Virus record (IMG/VR): IMGVR_UViG_3300016662_000010
Length of the DNA stretch: 64,000 nucleotides
Source: an uncultured virus (IMG/VR IMGVR_UViG_3300016662_000010)
Lineage: Duplodnaviria; Heunggongvirae; Uroviricota; Caudoviricetes
Reading direction: 5' to 3' (one strand)
The notes under the pieces are model-generated. The model searched no databases, had not been told where the DNA came from, and saw only the letters and a list, made by a program, of their open reading frames with translations. Shown here in pieces: positions 14,819-44,591 of this stretch. The position numbers and the translations under genes are program-made. How positions within the stretch are numbered: the stretch's first letter is position 1; every line of letters starts with the position of its first letter.

Positions 14819-15915
14819 TGTCTCGCGTACTGGTGCGTGATATTGTCCGCTTCTACAAAGGGCTGCCCCATCAGGATGCGGCCCTTGTAGAGCTTGACGA
14901 GGCATTGTCTAAGCTCATTCCCGATCCCATGGCCAAGAGCCAGCCGTGGTTTGCTACGTGGTCTAGTGCCGGCAAACAAGTAGTGCCCAATCCTGTCCCT
15001 TCCATGGTTCCGGCTGAAGGGCTGGCGCTAGTAAAAGAGTTTGAAGGTTGTGAGCTTGAGGCTTATGACGATGGAGTGGGAGTGTGGACGATTGGCTGGG
15101 GCAACACTAAGCATTTTAATGGTACTCCGGTCAAGAAAGGGGATCGCATCACGCAAAGCGCGGCTGATGCCATGTTGGCCAATACGTTAGAAAACTTTGT
15201 GCTGCCCACTTTGAAGCGCACAATTCCAGGCTGGGACAAGATGAGCGATGGGCAAAAGGGAGCTTTGATGAGCTTCGCCTATAACGTGGGCTGGAACTTT
15301 TATGGCCAAGCTGGATTTGAGACCATCACCAGGCGACTTGGTGAGTTTGCATGGGGGCAAGTGCCCGCAGCCATGGTGCTCTACGTTAATCCTGGTACGG
15401 CCACAGAGGCTGGTCTGAGGCGACGTAGGGCAGCAGAGGGGGCACTATGGAGCAAAGGCTTGCCTAAGCCTCCAGCGGCTCCTCCAGCGGCTCCTGCGGC
15501 CTTTGTGCCTGCCAGTCCCTTTAGCCTGCAAATCACGCCCCACATCACGTATGGTGAGTTTGCCTTGCAGCAAGAGGCTCGACGATTTGTGGCTGCCCAT
15601 CAATGCGCCACTGCACGATTGATTGCTGAATTTCTGGAGAAAGTGCGGGCTCAGTTTGGTGCGCCCATTGAAATCACTTCAGGGTATCGCCCTCCGGCCA
15701 TCAATAGGGCCGTTGGAGGAGCTAGCCAGTCCGAACACCTTTACGATGCCCCTGACACTGGTGCTGTGGACTTTCTCGTTACTGGCAAGAGCATTTATGA
15801 CGTGCAAGATTGGTGCGACAAGAATTGGCCTTATAGCCTTGGCTATGGCGCACAGAAAGGTTTTGTCCACCTCGGCATTAGGCCTGGTCGTCCTCGTATC
15901 AGGTGGGATTATTAA
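14818..15915 (+). CDS. Bifunctional endolysin: GH24 lysozyme + M15 peptidase
   Basis: EFEG...AYDD...WTIGWG...GLRRRRAAE; Pro/Ala linker; ITSGYR...SEH...AVD...FVHLG. Confidence 0.92.
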   Translation: MSRVLVRDIVRFYKGLPHQDAALVELDEALSKLIPDPMAKSQPWFATWSSAGKQVVPNPVPSMVPAEGLALVKEFEGCELEAYDDGVGVWTIGWGNTKHFNGTPVKKGDRITQSAADAMLANTLENFVLPTLKRTIPGWDKMSDGQKGALMSFAYNVGWNFYGQAGFETITRRLGEFAWGQVPAAMVLYVNPGTATEAGLRRRRAAEGALWSKGLPKPPAAPPAAPAAFVPASPFSLQITPHITYGEFALQQEARRFVAAHQCATARLIAEFLEKVRAQFGAPIEITSGYRPPAINRAVGGASQSEHLYDAPDTGAVDFLVTGKSIYDVQDWCDKNWPYSLGYGAQKGFVHLGIRPGRPRIRWDY

Positions 15916-16427
15916 ACGCTCAAGGTTAGGCGAGTGCGCTCTAAAGAAACATTGGCATTGGCTGAGAAGTTTGCCACTGCTAGTCCCACTTCGTCGCCAT
16001 TGTTAAGGCTGATGAAATAGCTTGGAATAGTCAATGGAACAGCAGAAGATGAATTGCCAGTATGGCCTCTCACTTCACTGCCTGACACCACAGTTCCGTT
16101 TTTGGTTAGCATCAGCCCAAGATGTTCTTGATTGCCAGCACTAGCTTCAGTCGCAACATTGGCTGCAAATACTAGTGTTTGTCCCGTGTTATTGCGCAAG
16201 GCAAAACCAGAGCCAATCACTACTCCACTGGTAATGGAGGAATCAAACGTGCCACTAATGGCCACTAGCGTGTATGAACTCTGCACAATGCCAGAGACAG
16301 TGCCAATAGTAGAGCGAGCAATTTGTCCTTGATACCGAATGCTGGAGCCAGGAATACCCTGTGGACCAGCAGGTCCAGGTTCGCGCAATACTACGCTGTT
16401 TTCCGTATAACTAACAACAACAGTCAT
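15912..16427 (-). CDS. Virion appendage protein with short collagen-like stretch
   Basis: PGPAGPQGIPG followed by a beta-rich (C1q/BclA-like) domain. Confidence 0.65.
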   Translation of the reverse strand: MTVVVSYTENSVVLREPGPAGPQGIPGSSIRYQGQIARSTIGTVSGIVQSSYTLVAISGTFDSSITSGVVIGSGFALRNNTGQTLVFAANVATEASAGNQEHLGLMLTKNGTVVSGSEVRGHTGNSSSAVPLTIPSYFISLNNGDEVGLAVANFSANANVSLERTRLTLSV

Positions 16428-16765
16428 GGCCGAAACGAAAAACTCGGATTGAGAGAAGCAGGGCCTTCCAAAAGGCAATAAACTTGCCCTGATGGGCTAG
16501 TGGCAAAAATGTCGTATTGACCATTCTCTGTGATGCCACTCGTAACACTGGCTGGCATTACGAGCCTGAAAATACCACTAGCCTGATTAGACCATGGCAA
16601 AGAAAAAGAAGCGAGCTTTTGCGTGCCAAGGCGATTGTAAAGGTCAGACTTTAGCGTCCAGCCTGACATATTGATTCCTACTCCATTGGAATCTTGCCAC
16701 GCCACTTCCAGATCAAACGTCGCACCTTGAGTGATCGTAATTGGAAAACAGGCTTGTTCCATCAT
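16424..16765 (-). CDS. Tail/baseplate-associated Ig-like protein
   Basis: ITQGATF...YDI...LLEG pattern common in phage tail regions. Confidence 0.65.
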   Translation of the reverse strand: MMEQACFPITITQGATFDLEVAWQDSNGVGINMSGWTLKSDLYNRLGTQKLASFSLPWSNQASGIFRLVMPASVTSGITENGQYDIFATSPSGQVYCLLEGPASLNPSFSFRP

Positions 16766-17040
16766 GCAAACTTCCGCGATGGACTAGAGGGAAATACGCG
16801 ATACTTAGCGAGACTTGCTACAACTGGTCCACGATAATTCACATGGTAGCCAGAATAGGCCAATGGAGGGGAAAGCAAGCGACGAGCCTCGTAGTCAAAC
16901 CTTCCGCCGTAGCGAATAGTCCCCACGAGGTCCAAAGCTCCAATAGTGGCGACAGTACTACCACTGGCAATGATCTTGGCCGCAATTAAGGCGCTAATAG
17001 CTTCTTTCTCAGTGGCAAACCGCCAGTATTGATCTTCCAT
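16762..17040 (-). CDS. Fibre-associated small protein
   Basis: WRFATEKEA...GYHVN...PSSPSRKFA; resembles 17584-17946. Confidence 0.6.
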   Translation of the reverse strand: MEDQYWRFATEKEAISALIAAKIIASGSTVATIGALDLVGTIRYGGRFDYEARRLLSPPLAYSGYHVNYRGPVVASLAKYRVFPSSPSRKFA

Positions 17041-17555
17041 CAAACCACAAAATAGTCAAGTTCAACTTGATAAGGTGTGCCAGAGGCTGCAGCAAACACA
17101 GTGCTAGGAGTTAGAGCCAGCCACACTGAAGCGCTCTTAAGCAGGATTTGCTTGTTCAGCAAAGTGCCTTGAGTGACAATGGTTTGCCCTAGGTCCACTG
17201 TTCCAAGGAGGTCGCTATAGCCTTTGTACTTGGCACTATCACCACTGTTCACCACTAGGGCCGCTCCATCGCTAATCCCTGATGGTGCTTCATTAAACCA
17301 ATGCACACGCATTGCCGAATAACCAGACGGTACACCACTTCGCGCCATCTTGACGCGAGCATTAGTGACGAACAAGCTCATGTTGGTTTCGCCGCTAGTC
17401 ACCACTTCAAATACACCAGATGCCGTGGAACCAACAACGACATTACCAGAATAAGTAAAAGTAGTGCCGGGGCGATTGAAGGCAAGCCTTGCCTCTTGAC
17501 CATCGCTGGTCATTAGCTGACGCTCTAGTTGTTCCCCGTTTCTAATGCGAAGCAT
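17040..17555 (-). CDS. Virion structural protein, SG-rich
   Basis: Beta-rich ORF in tail cluster. Confidence 0.6.
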   Translation of the reverse strand: MLRIRNGEQLERQLMTSDGQEARLAFNRPGTTFTYSGNVVVGSTASGVFEVVTSGETNMSLFVTNARVKMARSGVPSGYSAMRVHWFNEAPSGISDGAALVVNSGDSAKYKGYSDLLGTVDLGQTIVTQGTLLNKQILLKSASVWLALTPSTVFAAASGTPYQVELDYFVV

Positions 17556-17583
17556 GGTGCAAGCCCTGTTTCTTTTATGTTAG

Positions 17584-17946
17584 CTAAGACAGGCTCGGAG
17601 GCCATGCGTTGGGCTCCGGTTCAGTGCCAGCCCAGCAGACGCCGCCGCTGCCGTAGGGCACGCGGTAGGGGCGGAGGGCCGAGGGCAGGATAACGCGGTT
17701 CAGGATGACGTTGACGAATGCGCCGGGCACTGGGACGGGCGGCGTCAGCTCCTCGCCAGTCTCGGGGTCGTAGGTGCCGGGCACCACAACGTCAGTGATG
17801 AGCTGCGCCTGGCCGAACAGTCCCGGCTGCGAGATCACCAACAGATCGCGCATCTCCTCCTCCTCGGGCGGCAACAGCCGCAGGGCCTCGGCGGTGGCGA
17901 GGGCCTCTTGCTCAGAGTCGAAACGGAGGGTGAAATAATGGCTCAT
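17584..17946 (-). CDS. Fibre-associated/assembly protein
   Basis: LRFDSEQEA...GTYDPETGEELTPP...GAFVN; coupled to the upstream fibre gene. Confidence 0.65.
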   Translation of the reverse strand: MSHYFTLRFDSEQEALATAEALRLLPPEEEEMRDLLVISQPGLFGQAQLITDVVVPGTYDPETGEELTPPVPVPGAFVNVILNRVILPSALRPYRVPYGSGGVCWAGTEPEPNAWPPSLS

Positions 17947-19709
17947 TGGGTCATCGCCTGGAGGTTGGCATCAGCACGGCCAGTGCGCAGGATTGCAGCC
18001 TCGCGGATGTAGCCGTTCAGGAAGTATTCACTTCCATTGCTGCTGCCGATAAAGATTCGATCCGTCGCTGGCATTGTGCAAACAGTATCCAGGAATAGCG
18101 GCGATCCATTGACATAAGATCTGGAATTGTTTTCGGCATACCTAAATGCCGACTTGACTCCGTTCTGTGTCGCAGCCGATAGGTTCGCCTCGGCCTGTAC
18201 GACATTGCCGGTTTTAACCAAATACGCAACAATGCCAGTGCTTGCATAGATCTGTACTTCGTTCTGCCGATTTGCCCCTTGCAACTGCAACATCGTCGGA
18301 TAGGTGCTTGCCGGCACTGCTGAGCCAGTGGCAAAGTCAACGTACAGAGTGCCTTGAGCGGTGTTAATGATCCTTGCAGCATCCGCCCCCGCGATCGAAA
18401 TCACGTCCGCCGTGCTGCTGGCGGTGGTGGTGGTGGTAGGGACGTAGGGGCCTACCGTAGAGCCGGTTTGGAGTTGAGCGCCCCATAGCAAAAGGCTACT
18501 GGTTCCGTCGCCTGTGTACGCTGCAGATCCATTAACTGCAATGTGATGACGCAGAACTGCATAAGTGGATGCTAATGCAGTAGCAGTTACAGAACAGCGA
18601 TACCAGCCATTCGGGAAGGTGCTGATTCTTGCTGTGGTGGTTGCTTCCGACGCCGTGATCTGGCCCGTAGACAGGTTGAATGTGGCGTACTCCCCCGCAA
18701 AGGCTCCAGAGTCTACGCCAAAAGCCATTATCAGCTCGCTTCTTGTGCTCGCCTTGGCAAACACTGACCAACAATAGGTGGTCCCACTTGATACGAGGGG
18801 ATCTTGTCTTACAAGATGACTTGTGCTTGCACTTGTATCTTCATTCAGTCGGGTGGCCGTCAGTGTTCCATCAGGAGAGATTGCAGCGTTCAGGGTTGAA
18901 GTAGATCGAACTGACGACCATGGCGCCGTTCCAATCGCGCTCGTATAAAGCCACAGATTCGTCACCGCCCCCCACACCCGCAGCCCCCTCGGCCGCAGCG
19001 TCACCGGGTCATATCCGATCACCGGAGTATTTGCCGCCGGCTGGTACAAAATCCCATCAGGCCCCACCTCCCACGCTGGCGACGCACAGTTCACCGTCCC
19101 GCCACCCAGCACGGTGCCGGTGATCAGGTCAAGGGCATGGCCAGTCCTGCCGGGCGCAATATAAAAACTTGGACTTTCACCAGCCTGTGCAAAGTAGGCT
19201 TGACCACCAACTTGTAGAGGAATCAGATGCAATGGACTAAAGCCGTTTCGTAAAGACGCTTGTGTAACTGTTGAGTTTGATTGTCTCACTCCATTATACG
19301 ATAGTCCACTTGCAACAAGCCCAGAAGCAACAATAACTGCCTCTCCAGATTCAATGGACAGAGAAAATAGACTATCCGTTGAGGCCGGATAGCCACTTGG
19401 CAGTCCGTTATTGACAGAAATGTACCCTCCCCCATGAGTCCAGTTGCCAATAATGCTGCTATTGCCAGAGCGATTCACATATCCAGACAATGCAACGCCC
19501 GAAAAAGTTGTAGTCAAGCCATCAAGTTGTGCTTGATAATTGCCTTGGCTATTACCAATTTCGCCAATCACGGCAAAGTCAATACCTGCTGTGGCATAAA
19601 GTCCTTTTAATGCCGCATAATCAGCAGAAGACAGGCCAAGATTGACGACGGCTTGATCCTTGTCTGCCAAGTCAGAAAAATTATTGGCCCGTACGAGTCC
19701 TTTGGTCAT
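17943..19709 (-). CDS. Tail/head fibre (receptor-binding) protein
   Basis: GLVRANNFSDL N-terminus; TNL...SPDG...NGWYRCS...WGAQL carbohydrate-binding-like domain; LamG-like end. Confidence 0.75.
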   Translation of the reverse strand: MTKGLVRANNFSDLADKDQAVVNLGLSSADYAALKGLYATAGIDFAVIGEIGNSQGNYQAQLDGLTTTFSGVALSGYVNRSGNSSIIGNWTHGGGYISVNNGLPSGYPASTDSLFSLSIESGEAVIVASGLVASGLSYNGVRQSNSTVTQASLRNGFSPLHLIPLQVGGQAYFAQAGESPSFYIAPGRTGHALDLITGTVLGGGTVNCASPAWEVGPDGILYQPAANTPVIGYDPVTLRPRGLRVWGAVTNLWLYTSAIGTAPWSSVRSTSTLNAAISPDGTLTATRLNEDTSASTSHLVRQDPLVSSGTTYCWSVFAKASTRSELIMAFGVDSGAFAGEYATFNLSTGQITASEATTTARISTFPNGWYRCSVTATALASTYAVLRHHIAVNGSAAYTGDGTSSLLLWGAQLQTGSTVGPYVPTTTTTASSTADVISIAGADAARIINTAQGTLYVDFATGSAVPASTYPTMLQLQGANRQNEVQIYASTGIVAYLVKTGNVVQAEANLSAATQNGVKSAFRYAENNSRSYVNGSPLFLDTVCTMPATDRIFIGSSNGSEYFLNGYIREAAILRTGRADANLQAMTQ

Positions 19710-21010
19710 TGCGTTATTAGCAGTGCCTCAGTATTGGTGAGCAATGGATAAATGGTAGCGCGACGTAAAATCATTTTGCCTGCATTGAGGGTAATAATAG
19801 CCCTGCCAATTCCTGATGGCAAAAAGCCGGAAGTTGTGAATACTTGACCGCTAGTAACCAATGAAAATCCAGACGCAGAAAAATTAGCAGCAGAATTGCT
19901 AATGACTGGCCTTGAAGATCCTGTTCCAGATGCAGGATTTTCCCATGGGCTCAGTCCGTTTCCAACAACAAAAGATCCTACGCTTACTCCGGTGTTTGTT
20001 GAGTCAACTACTCCTGCAGTCAGCCTCATTCCATTGTCGGTCGCGCCAAGCCGTAAAGTAATGCGACTAGGATCAGATGTGCTAGTGACGTAGAAGATGC
20101 TGCGCCCAGATTGGTAAAAATCATCGTTTAGTACCATCTGCTCTTGCTGAAGAGTGACTCCACTATTGACGTACCAGTTGCCAAACTCTCCATCTTTGCT
20201 GTCAATGAAGTCCGACGCCCGAGTTGCGGCTACTCCTGAAGTGGGAATAAACGAAGACACATAGGCATTGGTTCCATTGGCTTCCACTTGAAATCCATCT
20301 GTTAGCAAACCTTGACCAGCGCCTTGATAGAAAAGGCTGCCATCATCACGCTGCAAGGCTAGATTCAGCACTCCCAGCACTGCTCCTGACGCCATAGGGC
20401 CAAGTGCTCCCACGCGAAACCAGCCATTCTTGCGCTTTTCAATCAAAGCAGTCCTTGTATTTATGCCATAGTTTTCCGGGAATACAAGGTGCCGTTGTAA
20501 GTCAAAGTAGACCACAGCATTGCCTTTGACCACTCCGCTTGCATCAAGTCCCACAAACTGCAAATATCCACGATTCACTCCATCGCTTTTTACAAAAGCC
20601 GATACTGCATAATCTGTACCACCACTAATGGCAATGGAATTGGCAACAAACCATGATCCGGGTACATTACCTTCAGCAATACGATAGGCCGTGGGCAGCC
20701 CGCCAATACCTGTATAACCTGAGCTAACGGCGCCATTCTGGGGTGCATAATACCAGCCTGAGGCTGTAATGTTATTGCTCCATGGCAGCAAGTTAGTGCT
20801 AGGACTTTCCATCAGCAAGCCTTGATAGGCTCCAGTTAGGGGATCGTATGACGGTCGTGGTTCATGTGCTGCTGCAATCCGCTGGCTGCCAGAGGCATCG
20901 ACATAAGAGCCAATGGTGGAGCGCGTAAAGTTAAAACGCGAATCCACCTTTGCTTGATTCCTGAAATCAAGCATTTGCAGTGGCCTAACCGTAGGATAAC
21001 CGGCAGGCAT
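19706..21010 (-). CDS. Fibre/spike protein
   Basis: FTRS...GLLMESPSTNLL...NGWFRV...SFIPT...ATRASD. Confidence 0.75.
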   Translation of the reverse strand: MPAGYPTVRPLQMLDFRNQAKVDSRFNFTRSTIGSYVDASGSQRIAAAHEPRPSYDPLTGAYQGLLMESPSTNLLPWSNNITASGWYYAPQNGAVSSGYTGIGGLPTAYRIAEGNVPGSWFVANSIAISGGTDYAVSAFVKSDGVNRGYLQFVGLDASGVVKGNAVVYFDLQRHLVFPENYGINTRTALIEKRKNGWFRVGALGPMASGAVLGVLNLALQRDDGSLFYQGAGQGLLTDGFQVEANGTNAYVSSFIPTSGVAATRASDFIDSKDGEFGNWYVNSGVTLQQEQMVLNDDFYQSGRSIFYVTSTSDPSRITLRLGATDNGMRLTAGVVDSTNTGVSVGSFVVGNGLSPWENPASGTGSSRPVISNSAANFSASGFSLVTSGQVFTTSGFLPSGIGRAIITLNAGKMILRRATIYPLLTNTEALLITQ

Positions 21011-21399
21011 TATGGAGCAAACAATGGCAAATAATGAGTGACGCCAGTAACTACTACAGGCAGCCATTGCTTGACGACTACATTAGAAGCTCCTGGAGCA
21101 TTAGTGGCAGAGAATGTGGCAGTACGCACACCACTGGAGGCTACACCAGAGCTTACGGTAAGACCGCTAACGATTGTAGGCTGGAAGGTGTCAAGAAATG
21201 CAAGGTCGCCAAGATATTGATTAAGAGGGATGTCCTCAGGATCAGTGCCAACAAAAGCCAAGGCAATCGCCTGCTTAAGACCACTAACGGTCAGAGCCTT
21301 GCTAGGTAATGACGCATCGCTTACATCATTGACATAGAACAGATCATTGTCGGCTAATGCCGAGCCAGAAATGATTGCGAGTTGGCTCAGTTTTGTCAT
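21010..21399 (-). CDS. Small fibre-associated protein
   Basis: VGTDPEDIPLNQYLGDLAF. Confidence 0.65.
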   Translation of the reverse strand: MTKLSQLAIISGSALADNDLFYVNDVSDASLPSKALTVSGLKQAIALAFVGTDPEDIPLNQYLGDLAFLDTFQPTIVSGLTVSSGVASSGVRTATFSATNAPGASNVVVKQWLPVVVTGVTHYLPLFAP

Positions 21400-22745
21400 T
21401 AGCCCAAATCTATGGCAAAATCAGTGGCGCCAGATGCAGTTTCAAGTTGCAGGAAAGAACCATCCTCCAACTGTAAAGTTTGCGTGGCATCAGGGTTATA
21501 GACTGAATTATAGCGCCATAGGCAATACTCCTCTACGGTACGCAGTTCTCTATCGGGCAGTATTCGGTTAAATGCCACTACGGCAAATACTTTCCCTCCA
21601 AAGCGTCCGGCACCACCAGGAGCAGTGGCAAGCAGGTATTGGCCGCCAGCCTGATAGGCAAAGCCCGATGGATCTAGGTAGTCCAGTCGCCTTCCATTGC
21701 GTCTCAGCTCCAGTCCATAGCTTTGTGATGCCCTGACACTAAAAGCAAACGTACCATTGGCAGGCATGGTGGTAGGAAAGCGGTCAATGGGCGAAGCACA
21801 AAATAATGGCCAAGTGCCATTCCCTGAACTTGTCCGCCAGCGTCCAGCATTGCTTGAATTGTTGGTCAGCAAGCAGTAGTCGGCATCTTCGACTTGCGCC
21901 ATGATGACGACCGTAGCAGCATCAGGGAAGTAGCCGCCAATGGAGCCAAGAGAGAAAAAGTCAGTACCAGTGAAGTTGATGCCAGGCTTGACAATACCGC
22001 TATCAACAATGCCAGACACAAGGTAGTAAGGACCATTGCCGCTGGTGGTTTGCGCTGCGCTTGGCCCACCACTAATTAGAGTGCTCCACAGGCTAATGCG
22101 ATTGGCGGCAAAGTAAGAGAATGAACTTTTCTCCGCATCAAGCCACAGTTGACAACCACTAAAAACTGTCGGCGGAGGCAATTTGGTGCGAATGTCAAAA
22201 AGCGTGTCGGAGCTATTGCTGATGCGCTGATAAACTTTGTAGTCCTCGTAGTGTGACTGCCACGGAAAAGTGGGGCCAGTGTAGTTGCCTAAGCCGCTAC
22301 CAGTGTTGAGGCCACTAATGCGCGTTGGGCCAGAACGGTAGAAGCCGCCACCCGAGAACGTGTTGCCACTGATGGGCGAAAAGAAACTCCCCGATGCAGC
22401 ACTATAAATAGCCCCACTACCAGTGGTACGAATGAAGGCCCGATCGCCAGAGACAATGCCGCTGACGATGAGCGAGCCACTGATGCTATCTCCCGTCCGC
22501 AAGGCTTTTAGAGCAAGCCCTGAGAGGGAAGCCGCAGCAATGGGGGCAAGGCCCGTGATCTGAGCTTCCAGTGGCGCACGAAGCCCTTCTAGTGCCGTGA
22601 AGTCTGCAGCACTGACGCCAGTAGCACTGATGCCAGCAATGGTAACGAAATCAGCAATGCGAAGTCCTAAGTTTTCAACACAGCGCGTATTGTCTGCAAC
22701 GTCTGCCAGATTAGAACTAGCTCTGAGTCCATAGCGCCTTGCCAT
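21399..22745 (-). CDS. Fibre protein with LamG/ConA-like domain
   Basis: GLRASSNLADV N-terminus; QLWLDA...FNRIL...VEEY...RY. Confidence 0.7.
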   Translation of the reverse strand: MARRYGLRASSNLADVADNTRCVENLGLRIADFVTIAGISATGVSAADFTALEGLRAPLEAQITGLAPIAAASLSGLALKALRTGDSISGSLIVSGIVSGDRAFIRTTGSGAIYSAASGSFFSPISGNTFSGGGFYRSGPTRISGLNTGSGLGNYTGPTFPWQSHYEDYKVYQRISNSSDTLFDIRTKLPPPTVFSGCQLWLDAEKSSFSYFAANRISLWSTLISGGPSAAQTTSGNGPYYLVSGIVDSGIVKPGINFTGTDFFSLGSIGGYFPDAATVVIMAQVEDADYCLLTNNSSNAGRWRTSSGNGTWPLFCASPIDRFPTTMPANGTFAFSVRASQSYGLELRRNGRRLDYLDPSGFAYQAGGQYLLATAPGGAGRFGGKVFAVVAFNRILPDRELRTVEEYCLWRYNSVYNPDATQTLQLEDGSFLQLETASGATDFAIDLG

Positions 22746-28154: not shown

Positions 28155-28156
28155 GG

Positions 28157-33222: not shown

Positions 33223-33920
33223 ACCTGTGCCGTAGGGAATCCCCCAAACCGCAATCGTAGCCCAGCATTGCCAAACCTACGCTCGCACGCTTCTAGGCTT
33301 TTATTGCAAGTGGTTTCGCCAGTAGGCTCTGCTCCTGCCCATTGACACTCTGGACCGCGATAAACAAACGGGCAATAGTTGGCATAAATCCGTCGTCGTG
33401 GAATTGTTAGCCCCTCATTGTCAAACACAGAAGCCAGTTCCCAGGTGATTGTCAGCTTAGTTTCTTCCACCTTGCGATTGATGTACCATTCGTCTGGCGC
33501 ATGATGGGCACTCGCATCATAAGAGCCTTGCACAGTTCCACCACCAATGCGTCGGACAAACTTGGCATAAGTAGAAAGACGCACAAAACGAAATCCAAGC
33601 AAGTCGTCGTAGCTTTCTGAAAGAATGGTGAAAGCGCGGTCAACATTGGCGATAGTGAGCGATGGAGAGGGGAGGCGGTTACTGCCAGTTAGCTCAAAGC
33701 CAGTGGCGGAAATTGGTACTGGAAGATAAGTGCGAAGTGTGCCGCCATCGTCCACGTATTCAATGGCCTGGCCGCCAGATTGCTCGGGACTGACAAGATA
33801 CTGAATAGCGGGGCCTGCGCCGGGAAACACGGCAGATCCATCAATGATGAAAAGGTCTAGGCGAGTGTCCTCGACAAGACTTCGAGCTTCGTTGATGATG
33901 CCACTAGGAGCCAGCGTCAT
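33219..33920 (-). CDS. Minor tail protein L
   Basis: PSLTIAN, CPFVYRGPEC...C.K...C..RF...FGGFP. Confidence 0.9.
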   Translation of the reverse strand: MTLAPSGIINEARSLVEDTRLDLFIIDGSAVFPGAGPAIQYLVSPEQSGGQAIEYVDDGGTLRTYLPVPISATGFELTGSNRLPSPSLTIANVDRAFTILSESYDDLLGFRFVRLSTYAKFVRRIGGGTVQGSYDASAHHAPDEWYINRKVEETKLTITWELASVFDNEGLTIPRRRIYANYCPFVYRGPECQWAGAEPTGETTCNKSLEACERRFGNAGLRLRFGGFPTAQV

Positions 33921-36900: not shown

Positions 36901-39250
36901 TAACGCCTTCAAAAATATCTTTTGTGGTTTTTGCGCTATAGCCCGCCGCCAATACAGAGGCTTGGAGTTTAGTGTAGGGCTGAATCACCTTGTCAATACT
37001 CATGCCAAACGTATTGCTGATACTATTGATAGCCTTCAGGTTGGCTTGATAGTTCTCAAAACTACCACTAACACCAGCCAATGCAATCCTGAGCCGAGAC
37101 AATGAAGCGGCATAAGTGGCAGAAGCATTGGCAGCAGCCAAAAGCTGATCACCAGTTTGGCCAATAGCGGCACCAGTGAAAGAGCCTGGAATGCCGCCCA
37201 TCAAGCCTCCAGCAAGGCCGCCTATGGCGCTGAGAGGGCTTCCTGCTAAGCCACCACCATATAGCACAGCGCCAGCCGCAGCGCCACTACGCTCGCCCAT
37301 GGTGAGGGGCTTGCGGGTGATGCGATCCATTTGTTGTTCTGTTCGCTGAATCTGGCGGTTCAGCTTACGATACTCGCTTGTTGTTGCACTGACGTTGTGT
37401 ATCTCACTTCGGTACTGCTGCAGGCGAGCCTCTAGTTGATTGATAGAGCCAGGCGCTGCAGCCCCCATTCGCACCCGAGCGTTAATTGCTTCAGCCTTTT
37501 CGCCCAACTTTCCCATCTGAATTGTCAGGCGGGAAATCTGCTCTTGATACCTAGACCATTCTTTAGTATCCGGCTTAATCTGCGATGCCTCAATTTGCAA
37601 AGCCTGAAGCTCTTTGTTTAAGCGCGTAAGAGAACCTTCCTCAAAGAACCGAGAGCTAGCCCGCAGTCGTTCCACTTGCCCAATGTTTTGGGCGCGTTCA
37701 ATTTCGCCTTGCCGAAAACCAGCACTTGCTTGTAAACTCCTAAAACGACGACTATTGATGGGCGTCTTGTTAATCAGCGCATCAATTTCATTTACCTGAT
37801 TGTAAAGGCCCTTGATTTCAGCGATAACATTCCCAAACTTGTCTCGGAGGTTATACGAACGCAAAACGCTATCAGACAGCCTTGGAAGATTTGCCCTTGG
37901 CAGGCTCGGTGGACCAATAGGATTACTAGGCCCCTGCCTCCTTCCACCTCCTCCCATTGCGCCCCCAAGTTGTGCAGATAGCCTTTTCGCTGCTGCTATA
38001 GCCTTGGAAGCACCACTTGTGATCCCATCGGCAAGCCTTTCGGAGAAGTCTTTTCCAGCCTTGGCTCCACCATTGGCAATCGCTTGACCTGGCGCTTTAA
38101 GTGCTTGATCTAACGCTCGTTCCAGTTCGCCTTTTTGGCCGATAATTCGCCTAACCATTGCTTCTGTCGGCTTTCCAGCTCGCTCATTCGCCAATCCCGT
38201 GATGTCAACTGGCAGATTTTCAACACCAGCCTGGCGAATGGCACGACGGTAATATCCAGGCCGCATGGTAGTAGCGGCAAGACGATCACCTAGTTCAAGA
38301 AAAGAACGATTGACTGCTGGTGGTTTGATTGTATTTTCTACTTGGACTTTGCGAATAGCATCTTTCATTGCCCTGTCCATCAACTTGCCTAGGGCTTGAA
38401 TGCTTTTAACTGCCCCTGGCCCTTCTTTCTGGATCCCCTGAACCAGTCCTTGAATGGCATACAAGCCAATCTTCATAAACTCCCTTGATGGCGAGGCAAT
38501 GCCTAGGGTATTTTTGATTTGCTTAAGTGTTGCCAGTCCAAGTCGTTCTGCGGCGGTTTTGGCTGTACTATTCCCAGCAGTGAGAGATTTCACAAAGCCA
38601 GCAATAGCTTGGTCTCCGGCTTGCTCTAACCCCTTGACCAGTGCTTCTCGTGTGGCTGCTACTGAAGGCTTAGCAATACCCTCCAAACCAGGCAGGGCAA
38701 TACCTTTCCTGCGAGCCAAGCCTGTAAGTTGCTCTAGCTCTGCTCCCTGCCGGGGGAATGTCTTTGCCCCACGAATTAAATTAGCAAGTTGTGCTTTCGC
38801 GGCTGTAATTCCAGCCGGATCTAGCACCTTAAACTCAACCTCAATCGGCCCTGTTTTTTCTGTTTCGGCTTGCAGGGCGGAATGTAACTGCTTAGCTTGC
38901 TGCTGAGCAACTTTCTTGATTTCAGTAGACGGCAGCGCCTTTTGCAAGGCCGCTGGCGTAAGGGCAGGCATGGACAATTCCATGCTTGCCTTGATTTGAT
39001 TCTGCTTAAAATATGCAATGGTCTGGCGAAGGTGACGCTGCTTTAGGTCAAGCTCAGCGTTCAGTGCCTTGAGTTGAGATAGGTCAACGTGCGGGACAAT
39101 TTCAGCACCAAATTGCCGATGAAGACTTTTAATTTCCTTCTCGACACGAGGAATTATTGCGCTACTAACTTGCTGCTGAAGGCCCTTAATCTCCCTCTGC
39201 ACCTTAGGTGCATTGGTTGTGAACAGAATCTCGTATGCACCGTTAGGCAC
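33917..39250 (-). CDS. Tail tape measure protein
   Basis: 1777 aa, helical; LGIASPSR, QIFAKGTVQSEEL, FANGG...GEG...EAIIP, EQRPGGLL. Confidence 0.93.
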   Translation of the reverse strand: MPNGAYEILFTTNAPKVQREIKGLQQQVSSAIIPRVEKEIKSLHRQFGAEIVPHVDLSQLKALNAELDLKQRHLRQTIAYFKQNQIKASMELSMPALTPAALQKALPSTEIKKVAQQQAKQLHSALQAETEKTGPIEVEFKVLDPAGITAAKAQLANLIRGAKTFPRQGAELEQLTGLARRKGIALPGLEGIAKPSVAATREALVKGLEQAGDQAIAGFVKSLTAGNSTAKTAAERLGLATLKQIKNTLGIASPSREFMKIGLYAIQGLVQGIQKEGPGAVKSIQALGKLMDRAMKDAIRKVQVENTIKPPAVNRSFLELGDRLAATTMRPGYYRRAIRQAGVENLPVDITGLANERAGKPTEAMVRRIIGQKGELERALDQALKAPGQAIANGGAKAGKDFSERLADGITSGASKAIAAAKRLSAQLGGAMGGGGRRQGPSNPIGPPSLPRANLPRLSDSVLRSYNLRDKFGNVIAEIKGLYNQVNEIDALINKTPINSRRFRSLQASAGFRQGEIERAQNIGQVERLRASSRFFEEGSLTRLNKELQALQIEASQIKPDTKEWSRYQEQISRLTIQMGKLGEKAEAINARVRMGAAAPGSINQLEARLQQYRSEIHNVSATTSEYRKLNRQIQRTEQQMDRITRKPLTMGERSGAAAGAVLYGGGLAGSPLSAIGGLAGGLMGGIPGSFTGAAIGQTGDQLLAAANASATYAASLSRLRIALAGVSGSFENYQANLKAINSISNTFGMSIDKVIQPYTKLQASVLAAGYSAKTTKDIFEGVTAASIATGGSADDLEGSMRAVTQIFAKGTVQSEELVGQLSERIPGAFALFARFNNMSTASLKEALERGQVGLDNFIRFNKGLLQTYGQSAREIAKGPEYAGQRLDAALKRLQGSVGGALAPIGAAFQEWATGAVNAFDQVIKKMQQYGLLSNQLSSGGIVEQVLSGQRSRKSVTEDIASLRKEIAQRKKEMQSSFLQSSLNAFDESWLAQMALIPSKNTEGVKSKEQRLATLSAAEASLKKLDDQIKNGAKEQALAAAEASKKELVSLAERYGELMSKRDDDLAKAREDYENNLQDLRKRHADEMRDFEESLTEQRRSAELNIARIRRDIVDTSVDAAEAQAISSALLNGQDISALREQARVSKVARENREAITRLEEDNAIKQDKRQKDLDKMRNKNAQEINKLAEDNALKVKKIGEEHAKNVRDLIVDTARKQGQTMLSAMRSINLQHEMILISTQRLMVGLHPRYENVDQRIVAPRIADIEKMLGIPAEKRLPPESESGQGASKYTGKGGPDMPDWVMAQAKPKPVATPVAKESDKLYPADNKTHFPYGPNGPTVTNKAGKVISGPTPEMKRLQNTESRLVTITKESQRAKNYADELKRVSDLLDESLGEMDRKIISANQSFSAQEQLLVNKINPALVDELGNQDAVFESLRKKLEIQKEGYKESKRLGEISLEQYEALTKAGDETLKKINEQEPARRRNLIASIEQGAALKYNLELAKEYAMLGKAPGLQQKLAEVRLAGIEDPQKALRFAQKLLDVDKAKAFQSQLTNLGDTISSTLAPAIVNLATVWSDFNESTREKGEKLKDFINRMATSILAQAANAVKDAFKQMAASVIQGGLDSLKNQGLSFLFNVLGLSKNGPQSSIESSFNGFSTDTGIDTSQFMLGNQRVFKFANGGIATGPTLGLLGEGRYNEAIIPMPNNRAVPVDLKGNVGSNYSTSIAVNISNSSAGATAESQITGDQGNKLAGVLDKAVKQAILSEQRPGGLLYRQ

Positions 39251-39252
39251 AA

Positions 39253-39759
39253 TCAGCCTCCCCCAAGTCGCCGCTTTCTAGTTTCGGCAATCGTTGTTTT
39301 CATTCTAAGCAATACCGGCAAAGTCCACGGCCTTCCTGGTACTGGCCTACAGTCTCTACCCAATAACTTTGGAGTGTAGCCATCATGCACAAACAAGGCA
39401 TAGTCCCGCTCATTATTTCCTGTCCATCGAAATAACGTAGCATTGGGCATGTCAAAACGCTGCTGACTGGCTTTCAATCCTCCCATGTCAACAATGTCTC
39501 GTGGCGAATAAGGCAAATTGCCTTCCGCTGATAAGTGGTCGCCATTCTCTCGCAATGTTCCCGTGACGCCCCTGACAATCTTTGGTACGCCATTCTCTCT
39601 GATCACGCTGATTCCTTCAGGACGGTTATAGGGAAAATCAAGCTCAAACGCCCCTTGGAACTCAAGTCCCACTCGGTCCATCAGTTCCTTGAACACTTCG
39701 CTGGGCAGCGAAATGGTCTTGGCAATCATGCGCATAGAATCGTAATTCTTAGATGCCAT
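39253..39759 (-). CDS. Tail completion/neck-like protein
   Basis: SPRDIVDMGGLKASQ...YALFVHDG...PGRPWT. Confidence 0.6.
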   Translation of the reverse strand: MASKNYDSMRMIAKTISLPSEVFKELMDRVGLEFQGAFELDFPYNRPEGISVIRENGVPKIVRGVTGTLRENGDHLSAEGNLPYSPRDIVDMGGLKASQQRFDMPNATLFRWTGNNERDYALFVHDGYTPKLLGRDCRPVPGRPWTLPVLLRMKTTIAETRKRRLGGG

Positions 39760-40175
39760 TATCGTGCCAGTTCTGCTCCAATTAGTCCCACGATAGCAGG
39801 AGGAAGCCTATGGTTTTTCAGCGCCCATTGCAGGGCTTCTTTGGTTTCACTACTGATGCCATTTGGTTTATCTTGCTCAAACGGCAAGAAGTCATCTACT
39901 TTTGCTCTTGCAGTCTTTCCGCCTAGGGCTCCAACAACTGTCACTGCTAATTTAGCCGTGCTCATACTATGAGCGTTGATTAGCCTTTGCTGTTCTGTAC
40001 TGGCTTGTTCCAGCATGATTTGCAACAAGCGGATTGGCACCTTGCCAAACCTTTCCGCATGAAACATGGGATCAGCAATGGCAAGCGCCTGAATGCGGCA
40101 ATACAAAGCAGCCCAATCCGTAGACTGGGCTAACGTGGCTTCACAGTGCTTTTCTAGCCGCTCTAGCCTTGTTCC
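39759..40175 (-). CDS. Tail assembly chaperone T-part, reached by -1 frameshift
   Basis: Frame is open from the slippery site (KGTRLERLEKHCEATLAQSTDWAALYCRIQ...) with no ATG near its beginning. Confidence 0.75.
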   Translation of the reverse strand, partial: GTRLERLEKHCEATLAQSTDWAALYCRIQALAIADPMFHAERFGKVPIRLLQIMLEQASTEQQRLINAHSMSTAKLAVTVVGALGGKTARAKVDDFLPFEQDKPNGISSETKEALQWALKNHRLPPAIVGLIGAELAR

Positions 40176-40684
40176 TTTGGGGCTTCGTCCTCTTCTGCCT
40201 CGGCCTCACTGGCTCCCTCTTCCTTGGCCATGAATGCCTCCACAGCATCAAGCATGGTCTTGGTGAGCTTGCCAGTGTCCTCCCGGCTCCAGTCGGTCGT
40301 GGAGGTCCATTCCGCGCCCTTTTTGACTTCTCCCCGGTTCTGAAAGAACTTTGTCACCAGTTCTTCAAATTGCTCTTGGGGCGATGGGAGGAGGGCAAAC
40401 AATGCCGCTGCCTCTTCTGTGAAATCTCCCAACACTTCCTGCCTTTCAGGGCCATCAGCTTGGAGGATGTCGAAAGCATCATCTTCACTGATTCCTTGCT
40501 TTGCTGCAATGCGTCGTGCCAAGCGAATGGCCTTCATTGAAAACTCAGCCCGCTTTTTGTTTTGCGCATCCCGCAGCCACAGTTCTTCAGTAAGCCAACT
40601 GCCATAACTGCGAAGCCGCAAGGCTCCAGCAATCGAAGCATACTTTGGACTGCCGACCAAGAAAAACTCGCTGTATTGGCTCAT
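40163..40684 (-). CDS. Tail assembly chaperone G
   Basis: Between tail tube and tape measure; acidic end EEDEAPKEQG containing C CCA AAG. Confidence 0.8.
   Translation of the reverse strand: MSQYSEFFLVGSPKYASIAGALRLRSYGSWLTEELWLRDAQNKKRAEFSMKAIRLARRIAAKQGISEDDAFDILQADGPERQEVLGDFTEEAAALFALLPSPQEQFEELVTKFFQNRGEVKKGAEWTSTTDWSREDTGKLTKTMLDAVEAFMAKEEGASEAEAEEDEAPKEQG
40175..40181 (-). other. -1 frameshift slippery heptamer CCCAAAG (G/GT)
   Basis: GCC CCA AAG in phase; -1 frame joins ORF 39759-40106. Confidence 0.8.
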
Positions 40685-40689
40685 GGAAA

Positions 40690-40911
40690 TCAATTAAGCA
40701 GCGCAAGTCTAGCGTTCAGCACACGACATGGCATGGGATTGGAAATGGCACGATGGGGGAGACCAATAATTAGCCTTTCGCCTTTCCATTGCACAATCAC
40801 CTGCTCAGGGCAATTACTGACAAAACATGCCAATCCCGCAACTAATCGCTCCTCTTCTCTTGTCACATTAAAGAGCCATACGTTGCCGCAGTCGCTGGTC
40901 AGCATTTTCAT
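40690..40911 (-). CDS. Hypothetical protein
   Basis: Fills the gap in the tail operon. Confidence 0.55.
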   Translation of the reverse strand: MKMLTSDCGNVWLFNVTREEERLVAGLACFVSNCPEQVIVQWKGERLIIGLPHRAISNPMPCRVLNARLALLN

Positions 40912-41315
40912 GGCCGCAACACTGGCCTCACTTGAGTGTCAGGGATGACAATTCGATACTGGCCATAGGCAATATCAGTTTCGGGCGATGGAGAAAAGCT
41001 AGCGTCGGGAAACACCCGCTCAAGCCGGCTCACCGCTTGATCCAAGGCATTGGTGCCACCGTTGTAATTCACCAGCATCACCACCCACGCCATACGACTT
41101 ACAACAATTCCCACTCCTGCAGTTGGCGACCGCCTTGGCATTTCCTCCATCGTCACCTCCAGCCCCTGCACTTTCCAGTCTGCTGGTACTCCTTGAGTGC
41201 CAGTCATGTAAATGGCCGGAATGGTTTGGCCATTGGGCAGCGTGTAAGTGCCAATGAGATTAGGCGGGCAACTAAGAATTGCCTCTAGTTTTTGTCGTAG
41301 TTGGAGATTGGTCAA
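40908..41315 (-). CDS. Putative tail terminator/completion protein
   Basis: Size, position and beta/alpha pattern. Confidence 0.55.
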   Translation of the reverse strand: MTNLQLRQKLEAILSCPPNLIGTYTLPNGQTIPAIYMTGTQGVPADWKVQGLEVTMEEMPRRSPTAGVGIVVSRMAWVVMLVNYNGGTNALDQAVSRLERVFPDASFSPSPETDIAYGQYRIVIPDTQVRPVLRP

Positions 41316-41369: not shown

Positions 41370-41948
41370 TCAGGAGTTGGGAGCAATCGGAATGATGCTG
41401 CCAGAGCTAGTGGCAGATTGGTGGATGCCATAACGGGCACGGCTCACCAGATCAAAAGTCACCTCGACCAAGTTGTCCGCAGGATAGCTTTCGTTGTAGT
41501 TCATCACACGCGACATGCCAGCCACTCGGTCATAGTAGAACGTGGTACCAGAAGCGCCAAGTTCCTTATTCATCTCAAAGTACACTTCGGCATTCTTGTC
41601 ATACCGAGCAGTGGTGATGACTTGGAAGGCTTCATCAAAGCTATTGGGCAGGAACGTGGCGCCGTCAACATCCTTCTGGAAGTAGGAAGTGACAGAAACA
41701 GTCAGGCCAGCAGTAACAATGACGCTATCAGAGAAACCACCGCCGCCAAGAAGGTAGAACTCGGTGTTGCCATCATTGAAAGCAATGGAGGCAGTGGTAG
41801 CAGCCTGGAGCGTGTAGAGAGTGGGAGCGCCACTAACGGTGAAAGTGGCGCCAGATTGAGTGATGGTAGGACGGGCAGTGCCAGTGATGGAGCCAACACG
41901 CAGGATAACGTCTTGGCTCTTAACCAGTTCAGTCGGATGGAAGAGCAT
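41370..41948 (-). CDS. Major tail tube protein
   Basis: 192 aa beta-rich, NYNESYPADNLVEVTFDL, followed by a terminator. Confidence 0.8.
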   Translation of the reverse strand: MLFHPTELVKSQDVILRVGSITGTARPTITQSGATFTVSGAPTLYTLQAATTASIAFNDGNTEFYLLGGGGFSDSVIVTAGLTVSVTSYFQKDVDGATFLPNSFDEAFQVITTARYDKNAEVYFEMNKELGASGTTFYYDRVAGMSRVMNYNESYPADNLVEVTFDLVSRARYGIHQSATSSGSIIPIAPNS

Positions 41949-41978: not shown

Positions 41979-42365
41979 TTAAGCGTTCAAGACGCTTCCT
42001 TTACCAATCAGTCTAAACACTCCCCTGATTGGTTGTCCTAGAAACTGCCAGTAGTGTTCAACAAGATGTTCGTTTGGCAGTAGTTCAAATCGTCCTTCCC
42101 GCCCATTGATTGTTGCTTTGGCTGATGCACCAGCACTAACTCCCGAAAGTGCCAATGGACCAGTCAAGCGCCCTTCCATATACACAGCAGTATGATCAGC
42201 CCCTAACAGGTAGTCATACCGTGGATTGTTCTTTTGCTTGAGAGTGGCGTAGTACACCACTCCACTGGAAACCGGGCGATAGTTTTGAGTGAAAGGATCC
42301 AAGGCATAGCCACTAGCTACTTCCCAAATTAGGGTTGCGTTTGCCAGTGGCGACAGTCCGTTCAT
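41979..42365 (-). CDS. Head closure/head-tail joining protein
   Basis: Position after DUF4054-like adaptor. Confidence 0.55.
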   Translation of the reverse strand: MNGLSPLANATLIWEVASGYALDPFTQNYRPVSSGVVYYATLKQKNNPRYDYLLGADHTAVYMEGRLTGPLALSGVSAGASAKATINGREGRFELLPNEHLVEHYWQFLGQPIRGVFRLIGKGSVLNA

Positions 42366-42369
42366 CCTC

Positions 42370-42675
42370 TCACACAACAAAACCAATGGTGGAAGAACAA
42401 CTATTGAGCATCCGTAGATACTCTTGACCGTATTGAGTGGCCTCTAGCCCCTTGCCATAGACTTTTCCATCAGTGGCGCCGATTTGGGCTCCCATTTGGA
42501 CCAGTTGTAGGGCAATGATATGGGCTGCAAGATGCTTGATGGCACGGTCTGACTGAGAGCCAAACACACCTTCGTCTACATCTGCTGAGGCTTCGTCAAT
42601 GGCTCCAAGAACAATTCCCGATGGATGGGGAATGAACTCAGGAAACCGCTCCAAGAACCCGGAGTAAGTGACCAT
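42370..42675 (-). CDS. Head-tail adaptor (DUF4054-like)
   Basis: FLERFPEF...LAAH...TQYGQEY. Confidence 0.85.
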   Translation of the reverse strand: MVTYSGFLERFPEFIPHPSGIVLGAIDEASADVDEGVFGSQSDRAIKHLAAHIIALQLVQMGAQIGATDGKVYGKGLEATQYGQEYLRMLNSCSSTIGFVV

Positions 42676-43061: not shown

Positions 43062-43108
43062 TGTTTTGGAGAAACAGTCACCAATTAGCTTAACGCCCCT
43101 TGCATGAA

Positions 43109-44023
43109 TCAGGCGCTACGTTGCACGTAGATCACGCTCTTCTGGTAGTACAGTGCCACACCACCCACGCGAGCATGAGCGGGGACAATGAACTGCAGAT
43201 TGCGCTGTTGCGGAGGGAAGAACTCCAGAGGCTGCGGAATGTGCAGTTGGAGCTTCTCGGGATCGCGCTTGTAGAACACCATCCGGCGAGTGTTGAGCTT
43301 GCCCGTAGTCTTGCTGCTGTCCAGTTGCAGGATGGGCTCAATGTTGCGGATGTAGGGATTGGTCCGCATGAAGTATTCCAGAACGGTCAGGTCACTGGAA
43401 TCACTGTTGCGAGTGGACGAAACTTTTTGATAGTCAGTCCACGGCATGAGCAGAGTGTCGGGCTGCTCTTTCATGTTGGAAGCATTGACAATGGCAGTGG
43501 AGCCATAGTTCAGCAGTTCCAGCATTTCAGCAGTGGTGATACTGGCAGTGTCAAACCACTTGTCAGCAGTCACGATGTCAACACCAGGATGATTGAAGAA
43601 TCCAGTGAGGTTGACAGTGGTATCACCAAACATCGCAATGTCTTCCACTTTCTCCTCATAGGCACGACGGGTAGCGGTACCACGACGCGACTCAAGAGCC
43701 ACATTGGCCATTTGAGCAGCACGCAGTTCCTGCACGGTGTAGCCAAAAGAGCCAGCAATGGAGCGGAAGTAGATGGACTTTTCCACTTGGCTCACGTCAG
43801 CACGCGGCAGATCGTCAGCATTGTCGGCAATGAAGTCGAACTTGCCGGTGCTATCCATCACCCGATAGGTGAATTGCTGGGCGCCAGGGCCAGCCTCACT
43901 GGTGACAGGCAGGATCGTGGGATATTTGATGTCGGCATAGGCCGTCTCAAACACTTGCGGGCGAATGTACTCCAGTTGGCGCTGGAGGAACAGTCCCGCA
44001 TCATCCATACGAAAATCAGACAT
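43109..44023 (-). CDS. Major capsid protein (DUF2184/HK97 fold)
   Basis: FLQRQLEYI, ADDLPRAD, GYTVQELRAA, FGD...GFFNHP, RVGGV. Confidence 0.92.
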   Translation of the reverse strand: MSDFRMDDAGLFLQRQLEYIRPQVFETAYADIKYPTILPVTSEAGPGAQQFTYRVMDSTGKFDFIADNADDLPRADVSQVEKSIYFRSIAGSFGYTVQELRAAQMANVALESRRGTATRRAYEEKVEDIAMFGDTTVNLTGFFNHPGVDIVTADKWFDTASITTAEMLELLNYGSTAIVNASNMKEQPDTLLMPWTDYQKVSSTRNSDSSDLTVLEYFMRTNPYIRNIEPILQLDSSKTTGKLNTRRMVFYKRDPEKLQLHIPQPLEFFPPQQRNLQFIVPAHARVGGVALYYQKSVIYVQRSA

Positions 44024-44030
44024 GGTTTCC

Positions 44031-44591
44031 TCAGGCGTTAGCGGTAAGGGTGAAGTTGGGACCGTTCAGGTCAACAACAGCCAAGCCACTGCCAGTGGTC
44101 CGAGACAGGTAGGCAGCGTTGGACAGCAGGGCAGTACGGCCACTAACGGCAGATGCCGAGAATTGACCGGCATACTGCACGCCAGAAGCAGCGTGGATGA
44201 CGCGCACGGGAGTAGACGGATCTACTGCACCATGGACGTACACCACGCAAGCGCCACGACGCAGAACGTTCATCAGTTGACGATCTTTGGCGCCAGGGCG
44301 ATTGTTGGCATCACGAGCAGTCTCATCAACGTAGGTGAGAATGTTCACGCCAACGACAGTGCCACTAACGCCAGAAATGGTACGGGCAGAGTCAGCAACA
44401 GTGCTGCCACTGTTCCAAACCATCAGGTTGCCGAAAGCCACAACGCCAGAGGTTTCATTGACGTAGGAATCAATGACTTTGGGGCGGGAATCAGCCAGTT
44501 GGCCTTCAAGGAAGGCATCATGAACCAGAGAATAGGTGGTCTGCACACCGCCCGCAGTGGGAGTGCCAGACGCAGAAAACGCAACAGCCAT
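44031..44591 (-). CDS. Capsid cement/decoration protein
   Basis: Between protease and capsid gene; GQLAD, AFG, NVLRRG.VVYV. Confidence 0.8.
   Translation of the reverse strand: MAVAFSASGTPTAGGVQTTYSLVHDAFLEGQLADSRPKVIDSYVNETSGVVAFGNLMVWNSGSTVADSARTISGVSGTVVGVNILTYVDETARDANNRPGAKDRQLMNVLRRGACVVYVHGAVDPSTPVRVIHAASGVQYAGQFSASAVSGRTALLSNAAYLSRTTGSGLAVVDLNGPNFTLTANA

Follow-up and report, generated by a model that had tools for sequence, protein, structure and literature searches.

Ser-Gly dipeptides as a candidate O-glycosylation sequon in outer proteins of an S-CBS4-like cyanosiphovirus encoding a GT4 glycosyltransferase

Background

In eukaryotic proteoglycans, Ser-Gly sites with acidic flanks are used by a Golgi xylosyltransferase. 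In phages, the available parts of PMC12619734, PMC12363180 and PMC11256854 describe glycosyltransferases (GTs) of Che8, Corndog and Myrna that are proposed to glycosylate the phages' own outer proteins, and report that mycobacteriophage glycans lie at the C-terminal ends of the subunits of capsid and tail tube. The mapped sites of TibC/AAH are Ser-313, in N-S-G-G, and Ser-322, followed by Ala (PMC4358343, in the part available), and the chlorovirus NY-2A protein B736L bound GDP-Man best (PMC9614988, likewise in part). Here we describe a 64,000-nucleotide stretch of DNA from an uncultured virus (IMG/VR IMGVR_UViG_3300016662_000010; hereafter the window), which belongs to an S-CBS4-like cyanosiphovirus and leaves about 10 kb of the phage outside view. 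In its morphogenesis proteins the dipeptide Ser-Gly (SG) is in excess, and a cassette with a GT4 glycosyltransferase lies among the head genes. Judging from sequence comparisons, SG is probably a phage-encoded protein O-glycosylation sequon primed by the GT4 on outer proteins, with variable genes that would extend and cap the glycan. The literature listings covered, from which subscription papers were mostly absent, showed none that deals with a Ser-Gly acceptor sequon in phages; new here are the contrast in Ser conservation and the comparison of three lineages centred on a single GT4 clade.

Excess of Ser-Gly in the window

Across the 34 morphogenesis open reading frames (ORFs) of the window, SG was the top dipeptide, with 151 occurrences against 86.9 expected (z 6.9) and GS at 84/86.9 (observed/expected, here and below). 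The 14 accessory tail ORFs at 15912-29268 held 108 SG (46.8 expected; GS 42), above the maximum of 64 in 2000 shuffles, and the genes from tube to cement held 17 (6.4 expected), a count reached in 0 of 2000 shuffles. Tail tip, tape measure and chaperones showed no enrichment, and the 30 other ORFs were neutral (35/33.3, or 24/31.1 without the pentapeptide protein). The excess persisted at 2.14-fold under a null model of 30-residue local composition, which rules out local S/G-rich patches as its cause. Repeat expansion in the window is ruled out as well, since 125 of 125 six-residue SG contexts were distinct.

Additionally, a Ser codon followed by GG occurred 114 times in frame against 50 and 7 times in the other frames, and the Ser codons of SG spanned both boxes (TCN 66, AGY 54; n = 120); a lean towards T-ending Ser codons before GGN was genome-wide. 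The excess therefore acts at the protein level, as a sequence-only reading of this DNA had argued from the varied Ser codons, and a DNA-level motif or codon artefact is ruled out by the frame specificity. The SG context in the window had T/V at -2, A/V/I/P at -1 and T at +3; T/V/A were enriched and Asp was under-represented (0.4-0.6x at -1/-2).

The same reading had counted SG protein by protein, and its counts are reproduced in the list below (with 1 GS in the 171-amino-acid (aa) protein at 17040 and 2 in the cement). Its claim that the enrichment is confined to surface proteins goes too far: J (5/6.5), the 26418 protein, gpL and the capsid are all unenriched, and a pentapeptide-repeat protein (3080-3853, + strand) is a non-virion source with 11 SG arising from its repeat. 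Taken alone, the tail tube excess was not significant (p 0.06). In enzyme-like proteins, SG stood at 30/40 in the window, 0.99 in the CBS4-like lineage and 1.23 and 1.47 in controls, and depletion there is suggestive only. The tube and most accessory proteins had no family match, and their gene position suggests that they belong to the virion. TM below denotes the template modelling score.

44031..44591, - strand: capsid cement (PF22758; profile matches Pam3 cement 8HDT, 9KMG), 8 SG against 1.9 expected
43109..44023, - strand: major capsid protein (PF09950), 0 SG
41979..42675, - strand: two neck-region proteins, a DUF4054 adaptor with 2 SG and a 135-aa protein with 3 SG against 0.8; SG columns kept in 44 and 47 relatives
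41370..41948, - strand: probable tail tube, assigned solely from its position, 4 SG against 1.6; 3-5 SG in 46/46 relatives
29302..41315, - strand: tail tip (J, K, L, M-like), tape measure (7 SG) and chaperones, by family matches; together 15 SG against 23.5
28864..29268, - strand: 134-aa accessory protein of a phage-only unnamed family, 5 SG against 1.3; family mean 6.5 against 1.8
28157..28861, - strand: accessory protein with phrog_1084-like N-terminus, 6 SG against 1.6
26418..28154, - strand: virion structural protein phrog_1645, 4 SG against 5.4, unenriched
23947..26421, - strand: virion structural protein phrog_1645 with SG-rich C-terminal half, 17 SG against 7.8
22745..23950, - strand: fibre-like protein, 9 SG against 4.5
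21399..22745, - strand: fibre-like protein of 448 aa, 19 SG against 5.9
21010..21399, - strand: 129-aa accessory protein, 5 SG against 1.0
19706..21010, - strand: tail protein with phrog_5939 domain, 14 SG against 5.5
17943..19709, - strand: 588-aa fibre with SG-rich resident N-terminus and swapped, SG-poor phrog_5939/ConA-like C-terminus
17040..17555, - strand: 171-aa accessory protein of a phage-only family, 8 SG against 1.8; weak jelly-roll likeness (nanovirus coat model matched at TM 0.53)
15912..17040, - strand: three small distal tail genes with 5, 4 and 2 SG; LtfC-like and phrog_24754

Association with GT4 across phage lineages

The window capsid is 74% identical to that of Synechococcus phage S-CBS4 (other cultured matches about 35%), and the gene order is common to the window and S-CBS4 (NC_016766); this kinship suggests a picocyanobacterial host. 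Six freshwater runs from two studies each contained 91% or more of the sequence words in 44031-51014, and three of these runs may be the source. GT4 was kept in 18/18 loci spanning the cassette, none of which was a close relative without it, and it is thus the constant member beside a GT32-like gene (15 loci), a DUF4422 gene (11), a methyltransferase (4) and an oxygenase (1). By tblastn, the GT4 matched 8 of 50,697 cultured-phage records, among them S-CBS4, S-EIV1, TJE1, Mae-JY09 and two unannotated records; none was a mycobacteriophage.

The genes around GT4 told little in most of 80 loci found by pattern, so three lineages (CBS4-like, S-EIV1-like and low-GC) were read as whole or near-whole contigs. 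By blastp, neither the S-EIV1-like nor the low-GC lineage matched the window portal, capsid, cement or tube. Surface-like proteins were selected by composition only (S+T+G+A+V at least 42%, K+E+R below 12%), with classic pentapeptide proteins removed and thinning at 50% identity. Their SG stood at 414/246 in the CBS4-like, 241/127 in the S-EIV1-like and 225/117 in the low-GC set, with GS counts of 266, 122 and 120; TG was also in excess in the S-EIV1-like set. TJE1 and Mae-JY09 together gave 43/23, two genomes read later 95/58 (G006) and 20/13.5 (G007, partial), and the structural ORFs of S-CBS4 126/94. Five further control phages gave 43/41.7, and GT4-free cyanophages showed little or no SG excess, GS being raised as well (Pam3, 6/6; S-TIM5, 81/67, GS 83; S-CAM4, 54/35, GS 45).

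Per genome, the median SG ratio was 1.93 in 19 GT4-bearing genomes and 1.24 in 24 control sets, and a ratio of at least 1.5 was reached by 18/19 and 8/24, respectively; G002 was excluded as near-identical to the window, and control sets needed at least 5 expected SG. The p of 5e-5 for this contrast is overstated because kin genomes are non-independent. GT4 was absent from the 43 control records searched for it, just 6 of which were at least 90% complete, the remaining control records being unsearched. The SG excess is thus 1.3-1.4x at baseline, about 1.7-1.9x in GT4 lineages and 2.3x in the window, with one clear exception, G025. The co-occurrence that the sequence-only reading had proposed to look for is therefore seen, the excess tracking the GT4 clade in unrelated lineages.

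The CBS4-like phage contigs L148, L149 and L150 are probably misbinned, as the metagenome-assembled genomes that contain them carry the labels Methylacidiphilales and Polynucleobacter.

Conservation of the serine before glycine

Among paired surface-like proteins (filter 40%/13%), Ser changed less often before Gly than elsewhere in all four GT4-bearing sets (13/120 against 104/407, 28/106 against 131/337, 21/175 against 89/239 and 8/46 against 133/324; ratios 0.42, 0.68, 0.32 and 0.42). This protection was absent from the other proteins of these sets (0.93-1.23) and from controls (20/64 against 144/475; 1.03). With Gly kept, Ser changed in 67/480 cases (14%) against 346/1087 elsewhere (32%) in 91 pooled GT4-bearing pairs, 43 of the 53 informative pairs agreeing, although same-family pairs are non-independent. 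The corresponding figures in 32 control pairs, which offer fewer sites and include 40 short loci unsearched for GT4, were 21/63 (33%) against 131/430 (30%), with agreement in 5 of 13. Ser after Gly changed in 59/139 cases in the pooled GT4-bearing pairs.

Ala, Asn and Asp before Gly were unprotected in the GT4-bearing pairs. Thr before Gly changed in 58/320 cases against 418/1658 when pooled and was protected only in the S-EIV1-like set (0.57), while Thr was the commonest replacement of an SG Ser (18/67). Asn-Gly and Asp-Gly are the usual turn pairs; a turn preference would be expected to protect them and to show in controls, and neither was seen, which argues against turns. Selection thus acts on the Ser before Gly, in outer-type proteins alone and solely where GT4 is encoded; a need for the hydroxyl in this setting is what a sequon would predict, apart from G025, which has the enzyme and lacks the SG excess. 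Such selective conservation points to a hydroxyl-dependent tag.

Homologous proteins with and without Ser-Gly

Homologues from GT4-free phages were not SG-rich. GT4-free outgroup cements of the same capsid family had 0-1 SG each (7/7), whereas the 132 lineage cements averaged 4.75 against 1.83 expected, spread over 19 columns, and the cement of TJE1, with a distant GT4, had 4. Several cement SG sites align with gaps in the outgroup cements, a weak sign of exposure. In the 19706 protein, the SG columns were mostly DG, NA, AS or SS in a paralogue and in four homologues from GT4-free phages, and the paralogous phrog_5939 domains carried 14 SG against 2 in the swapped copy.

The 588-aa fibre has 9 SG, 7 at residues 70-134 and the others at 308 and 334. 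That its SG-poor C-terminus was imported, as had been proposed, is borne out by identity to the G002 orthologue, which drops from 0.72-0.90 to 0.14-0.40 there, and by a shift of GC content at third codon positions (GC3; 0.57 against 0.36). In G002, the fibre C-terminus had 6 SG against 4.2 expected and the N-terminus 9 against 3.6. The 120-aa gene after the swapped tip (17584-17946, - strand) has a GC3 of 0.84 against about 0.4 around it and was probably imported with the tip.

S and G also changed together. In disjoint pairs of present-day sequences in which two adjacent columns both differed (gain and loss are not distinguished), an intact SG on one side was found 21 times against 5 in cement and 24 times against 5 in the 120-member 28864 family, with GS at 11 against 11 and 4 against 6; register shifts in the alignments may add to this signal. 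The same test on tube, neck, capsid, protease and GT32 found too few changes or no signal. A Mae-JY09 protein (L069, 20757-21413) has 9 SG, and its C-terminal part matches the 28864 family at 27%.

These data bear on the explanation that we consider unlikely but best placed among the alternatives, namely that the beta-rich folds of fibres and cement favour SG in their tight turns and caps, the GT4 link reflecting shared ancestry or habitat. It would account for the 1.3-1.4x excess that compositionally matched control proteins show, for NG and DG being raised in the window (1.34 and 1.56) and for the single IPT-SG site that the S-CAM4 homologues have in common, and the independent lineages are few. 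It accords poorly with the GT4-free cements and the replaced homologous columns, with Ser-Gly, rather than Asn-Gly or Asp-Gly, being protected and only in GT4-bearing sets, and with sites that shift among 19 and 26 columns in two families. From the alignments, the same folds do without SG and so do not require it.

The GT4 and its cassette

The cassette sits between portal/50956 and the head protease:

49701..50921, - strand: GT4 (GT-B) glycosyltransferase of 406 aa, candidate initiating protein O-glycosyltransferase (Pfam GT4-type matches, phrog_2170, B736L likeness)
48985..49701, - strand: Gly_transf_sug (GT32-like) protein, candidate for extending the chain (PF04488 under the cut-off at E 3e-4; 15/18 loci)
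48264..48998, - strand: DUF4422-family protein, WbbM N-domain-like, candidate extender (own copy without Pfam match; homologues PF14393 in 11/12; 11/18 loci)
47569..48267, - strand: 2-oxoglutarate (2OG)-Fe(II) oxygenase, accessory (PF13640, E 6e-17; 1/18 loci)
47025..47564, - strand: class I S-adenosylmethionine methyltransferase, accessory, candidate glycan cap (PF13489/PF08241, phrog_32762; 4/18 loci)

E-x7-E is a motif of GT4/GT-B glycosyltransferases, and E284 and E292 were invariant in 19 aligned rows. A model from this 19-row alignment (predicted local distance difference test, pLDDT, 85.8) has two Rossmann domains; an alignment-free model (pLDDT 44) was discarded. The best match was chlorovirus B736L both in sequence (PDB 3OY2, E 3e-14, 21% identity) and in fold (Foldseek rank 1, TM 0.77), with BshA and MshA also among the matches. 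On fold and motif, the product is predicted to be a GT4/GT-B glycosyltransferase. The DUF4422-family protein matched WbbM 6U4B by profile (E 1e-8).

The GT4 clade counts 1223 clusters at E 1e-30. In its tree, CBS4-like and S-EIV1-like copies group together (Shimodaira-Hasegawa-like approximate likelihood ratio test 99), and low-GC copies lie apart, among bacterial ones. In the window lineage, the low-GC lineage and Mae-JY09, the neighbours of the gene are head or neck genes; in S-EIV1-like phages it is beside primase. The head-neck operon of low-GC G018 (L398, 9551-15280) contains GT4 together with a sulfatase-like gene, a GT4/GT2 fusion and two methyltransferases. Three GT4 matches were first scored with internal stops (G022:C1:44576-45799, G026:C1:26647-27846 and G017:C1:54501-55673), and intact ORFs were found in G017 and G022. 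The idea that GT4 avoids SG in itself was not used: 109/118 lineage copies lack SG, but the avoidance did not extend to 150 distant representatives, in which SG stood at 209/227 (observed/expected).

Concerning DNA modification, PF00145 (C5 cytosine methyltransferase) matched 0/5 complete relatives, its control being positive in 9/14 genomes, and the TET/JBP-type dioxygenase profile PF12851 also matched 0/5 in a search in which no positive control matched either. In the window, six-base palindromes were strongly avoided (GAATTC 0/21, GAGCTC 0/38, GCATGC 0/19, CAATTG 2/55; TCGA 146/339), which suggests that the DNA is unmodified and under heavy pressure from restriction.

Around the cassette, the portal (51630-53714, - strand) has a C-terminal DUF5872 extension, and portal length differs between relatives. 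The terminase large subunit (54254-56086, + strand), on the strand opposite to the head genes, has an intein-like splicing domain (PF14890, marginally below cut-off). The endolysin (14818-15915, + strand) combines phage lysozyme and peptidase M15 domains in one protein.

Proposed mechanism, alternatives and significance

In the reading that we favour, late in infection the soluble GT4 would transfer a first sugar from a nucleotide-sugar to the Ser hydroxyl of SG, preferably within [T/V/A/I]-[A/V/I/P]-Ser-Gly, in loops of the cement, the tube, neck proteins and accessory fibres, and the Gly would give the enzyme room. Chain lengthening would then fall to the GT32-like and DUF4422 proteins, and its decoration to the methyltransferase and oxygenase. 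As these genes are swapped, we propose, the coat would change while the SG tag stays. Long-resident proteins would accumulate sites, and freshly imported modules would carry few. What the phage would gain can only be guessed (a mask against grazers or proteases, less particle sticking, stability), and this applies to the shield that the sequence-only reading suggested. Tentatively, one widespread GT4 clade related to B736L may be a sequon-reading O-glycosyltransferase that moved between unrelated lineages and drove SG into unrelated outer proteins.

Several observations weigh against this. The surface-like class is our own composition filter, and the 1.3-1.4x part of the excess is a general property of such proteins: 80 control loci with a minor-tail-L (gpL) marker gave SG 252/181 as the top dipeptide (GS 223), and seven other control phages 214/162 (GS 182). 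The lineage genomes are kin, leaving about three to five independent contrasts, and no sister clade that lost GT4 was found. S-CBS4 itself is weak (72/51), with only 1 SG in its cement, and other lineages have some SG-rich proteins whose sequence is repetitive. The 216-kb phage G025, in which GT4 lies among non-structural genes, shows no excess (77/79), and control ctYwJ313 (41/23) and fragment L438 (31/13.5) show one with no GT4 found in either. Bacterial GT4 homologues are mostly without SG-rich neighbours.

Two side observations concern these contigs. L438, a 19%-complete contig without GT4, encodes a minor-tail/ConA-like protein (5924-8458) with 24 SG in N/D/E-Ser-Gly context. In the Parasedimentitalea contig L154, two small related ORFs (6840-7508 and 9066-9338; 4 and 5 SG, 1.1 and 0.9 expected) precede a GT4 homologue, possibly as a bacterial version of the SG tag; the other four bacterial loci show none.

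G025, L438 and ctYwJ313 would be easier to understand if SG were a true tag written by something else, such as a host enzyme, a different phage transferase or a non-sugar O-modification, and the nearest folds of the GT4 include the small-molecule enzymes BshA and MshA, while the acceptor of B736L itself is not settled in the available part of PMC9614988. We nevertheless judge a different writer improbable, given that GT4 is the sole cassette gene kept in 18/18 loci, that it recurs with the tag in unrelated lineages, and that the GT4-free cyanophages Pam3, S-TIM5 and S-CAM4 are flat or weak with GS raised. That the cassette acts on the host surface or on phage DNA, SG being lineage drift or a DNA-level motif, is very improbable: phage GTs that glycosylate DNA exist (10.1101/2023.12.21.572611, in the part available) and a GT, an oxygenase and a methyltransferase adjoin here, but PF00145 is missing from the complete relatives, the oxygenase is a PF13640 protein seen in 1/18 loci, avoidance of six-base palindromes would be expected of unprotected DNA, and the motif is frame-specific and under selection.

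A motif with a candidate writer makes the question testable in cultured S-CBS4 or S-EIV1 or by co-expression in E. coli. If SG is a sequon primed by GT4, the B736L/A546L family gains an acceptor hypothesis and metagenomes a sequence signature for glycosylated phages. The GT4 would possibly offer an O-glycosyltransferase that is small and soluble and whose tag is two residues long. Moreover, a phage glycoproteome would be readable from sequence, and many aquatic phages would carry a variable, self-made sugar coat.

Comparison with known systems

The sequon-directed O-glycan proposed by the sequence-only reading is partly supported by the GT4-linked SG excess and the Ser conservation, and its proteoglycan parallel reduces to analogy. 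Ser-Gly serves as sugar acceptor in proteoglycans, as is proposed here, but the flanks in the window are T/V/A/I/P rather than acidic, and no xylosyltransferase-type gene was present among the scanned cassette proteins.

Chlorovirus NY-2A B736L and PBCV-1 A546L offer the best sequence and fold match and are likewise viral soluble GT-B enzymes; B736L is 21% identical, and the available part of PMC9614988 describes no SG sequon for it. S-CBS4 has a GT4-GT2-methyltransferase group at the same place (capsid 74%, GT4 56%), and differs in its weaker SG excess, its cement and its other extender genes.

[quoted passage not shown] Identity with this BAHT (TibC/AAH) group was rejected, the GT4 model starting with a Rossmann domain and TibC being absent among the matches listed. 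Kinship to Che8 gp110 or Corndog gp38 was sought by tblastn with the GT4 alone, and no mycobacteriophage matched. As in mycobacteriophage virion glycosylation, soluble GTs are phage-encoded, here as GT4, GT32-like and DUF4422-like proteins in the head operon; in contrast, many internal SG sites lie on cement, neck and accessory fibres and 0 on the capsid, beside which a separate C-terminal site may exist, in a system known from sequence alone. By analogy, and with no membership in either claimed, the system of the window would work like mycobacteriophage virion glycosylation and TibC.

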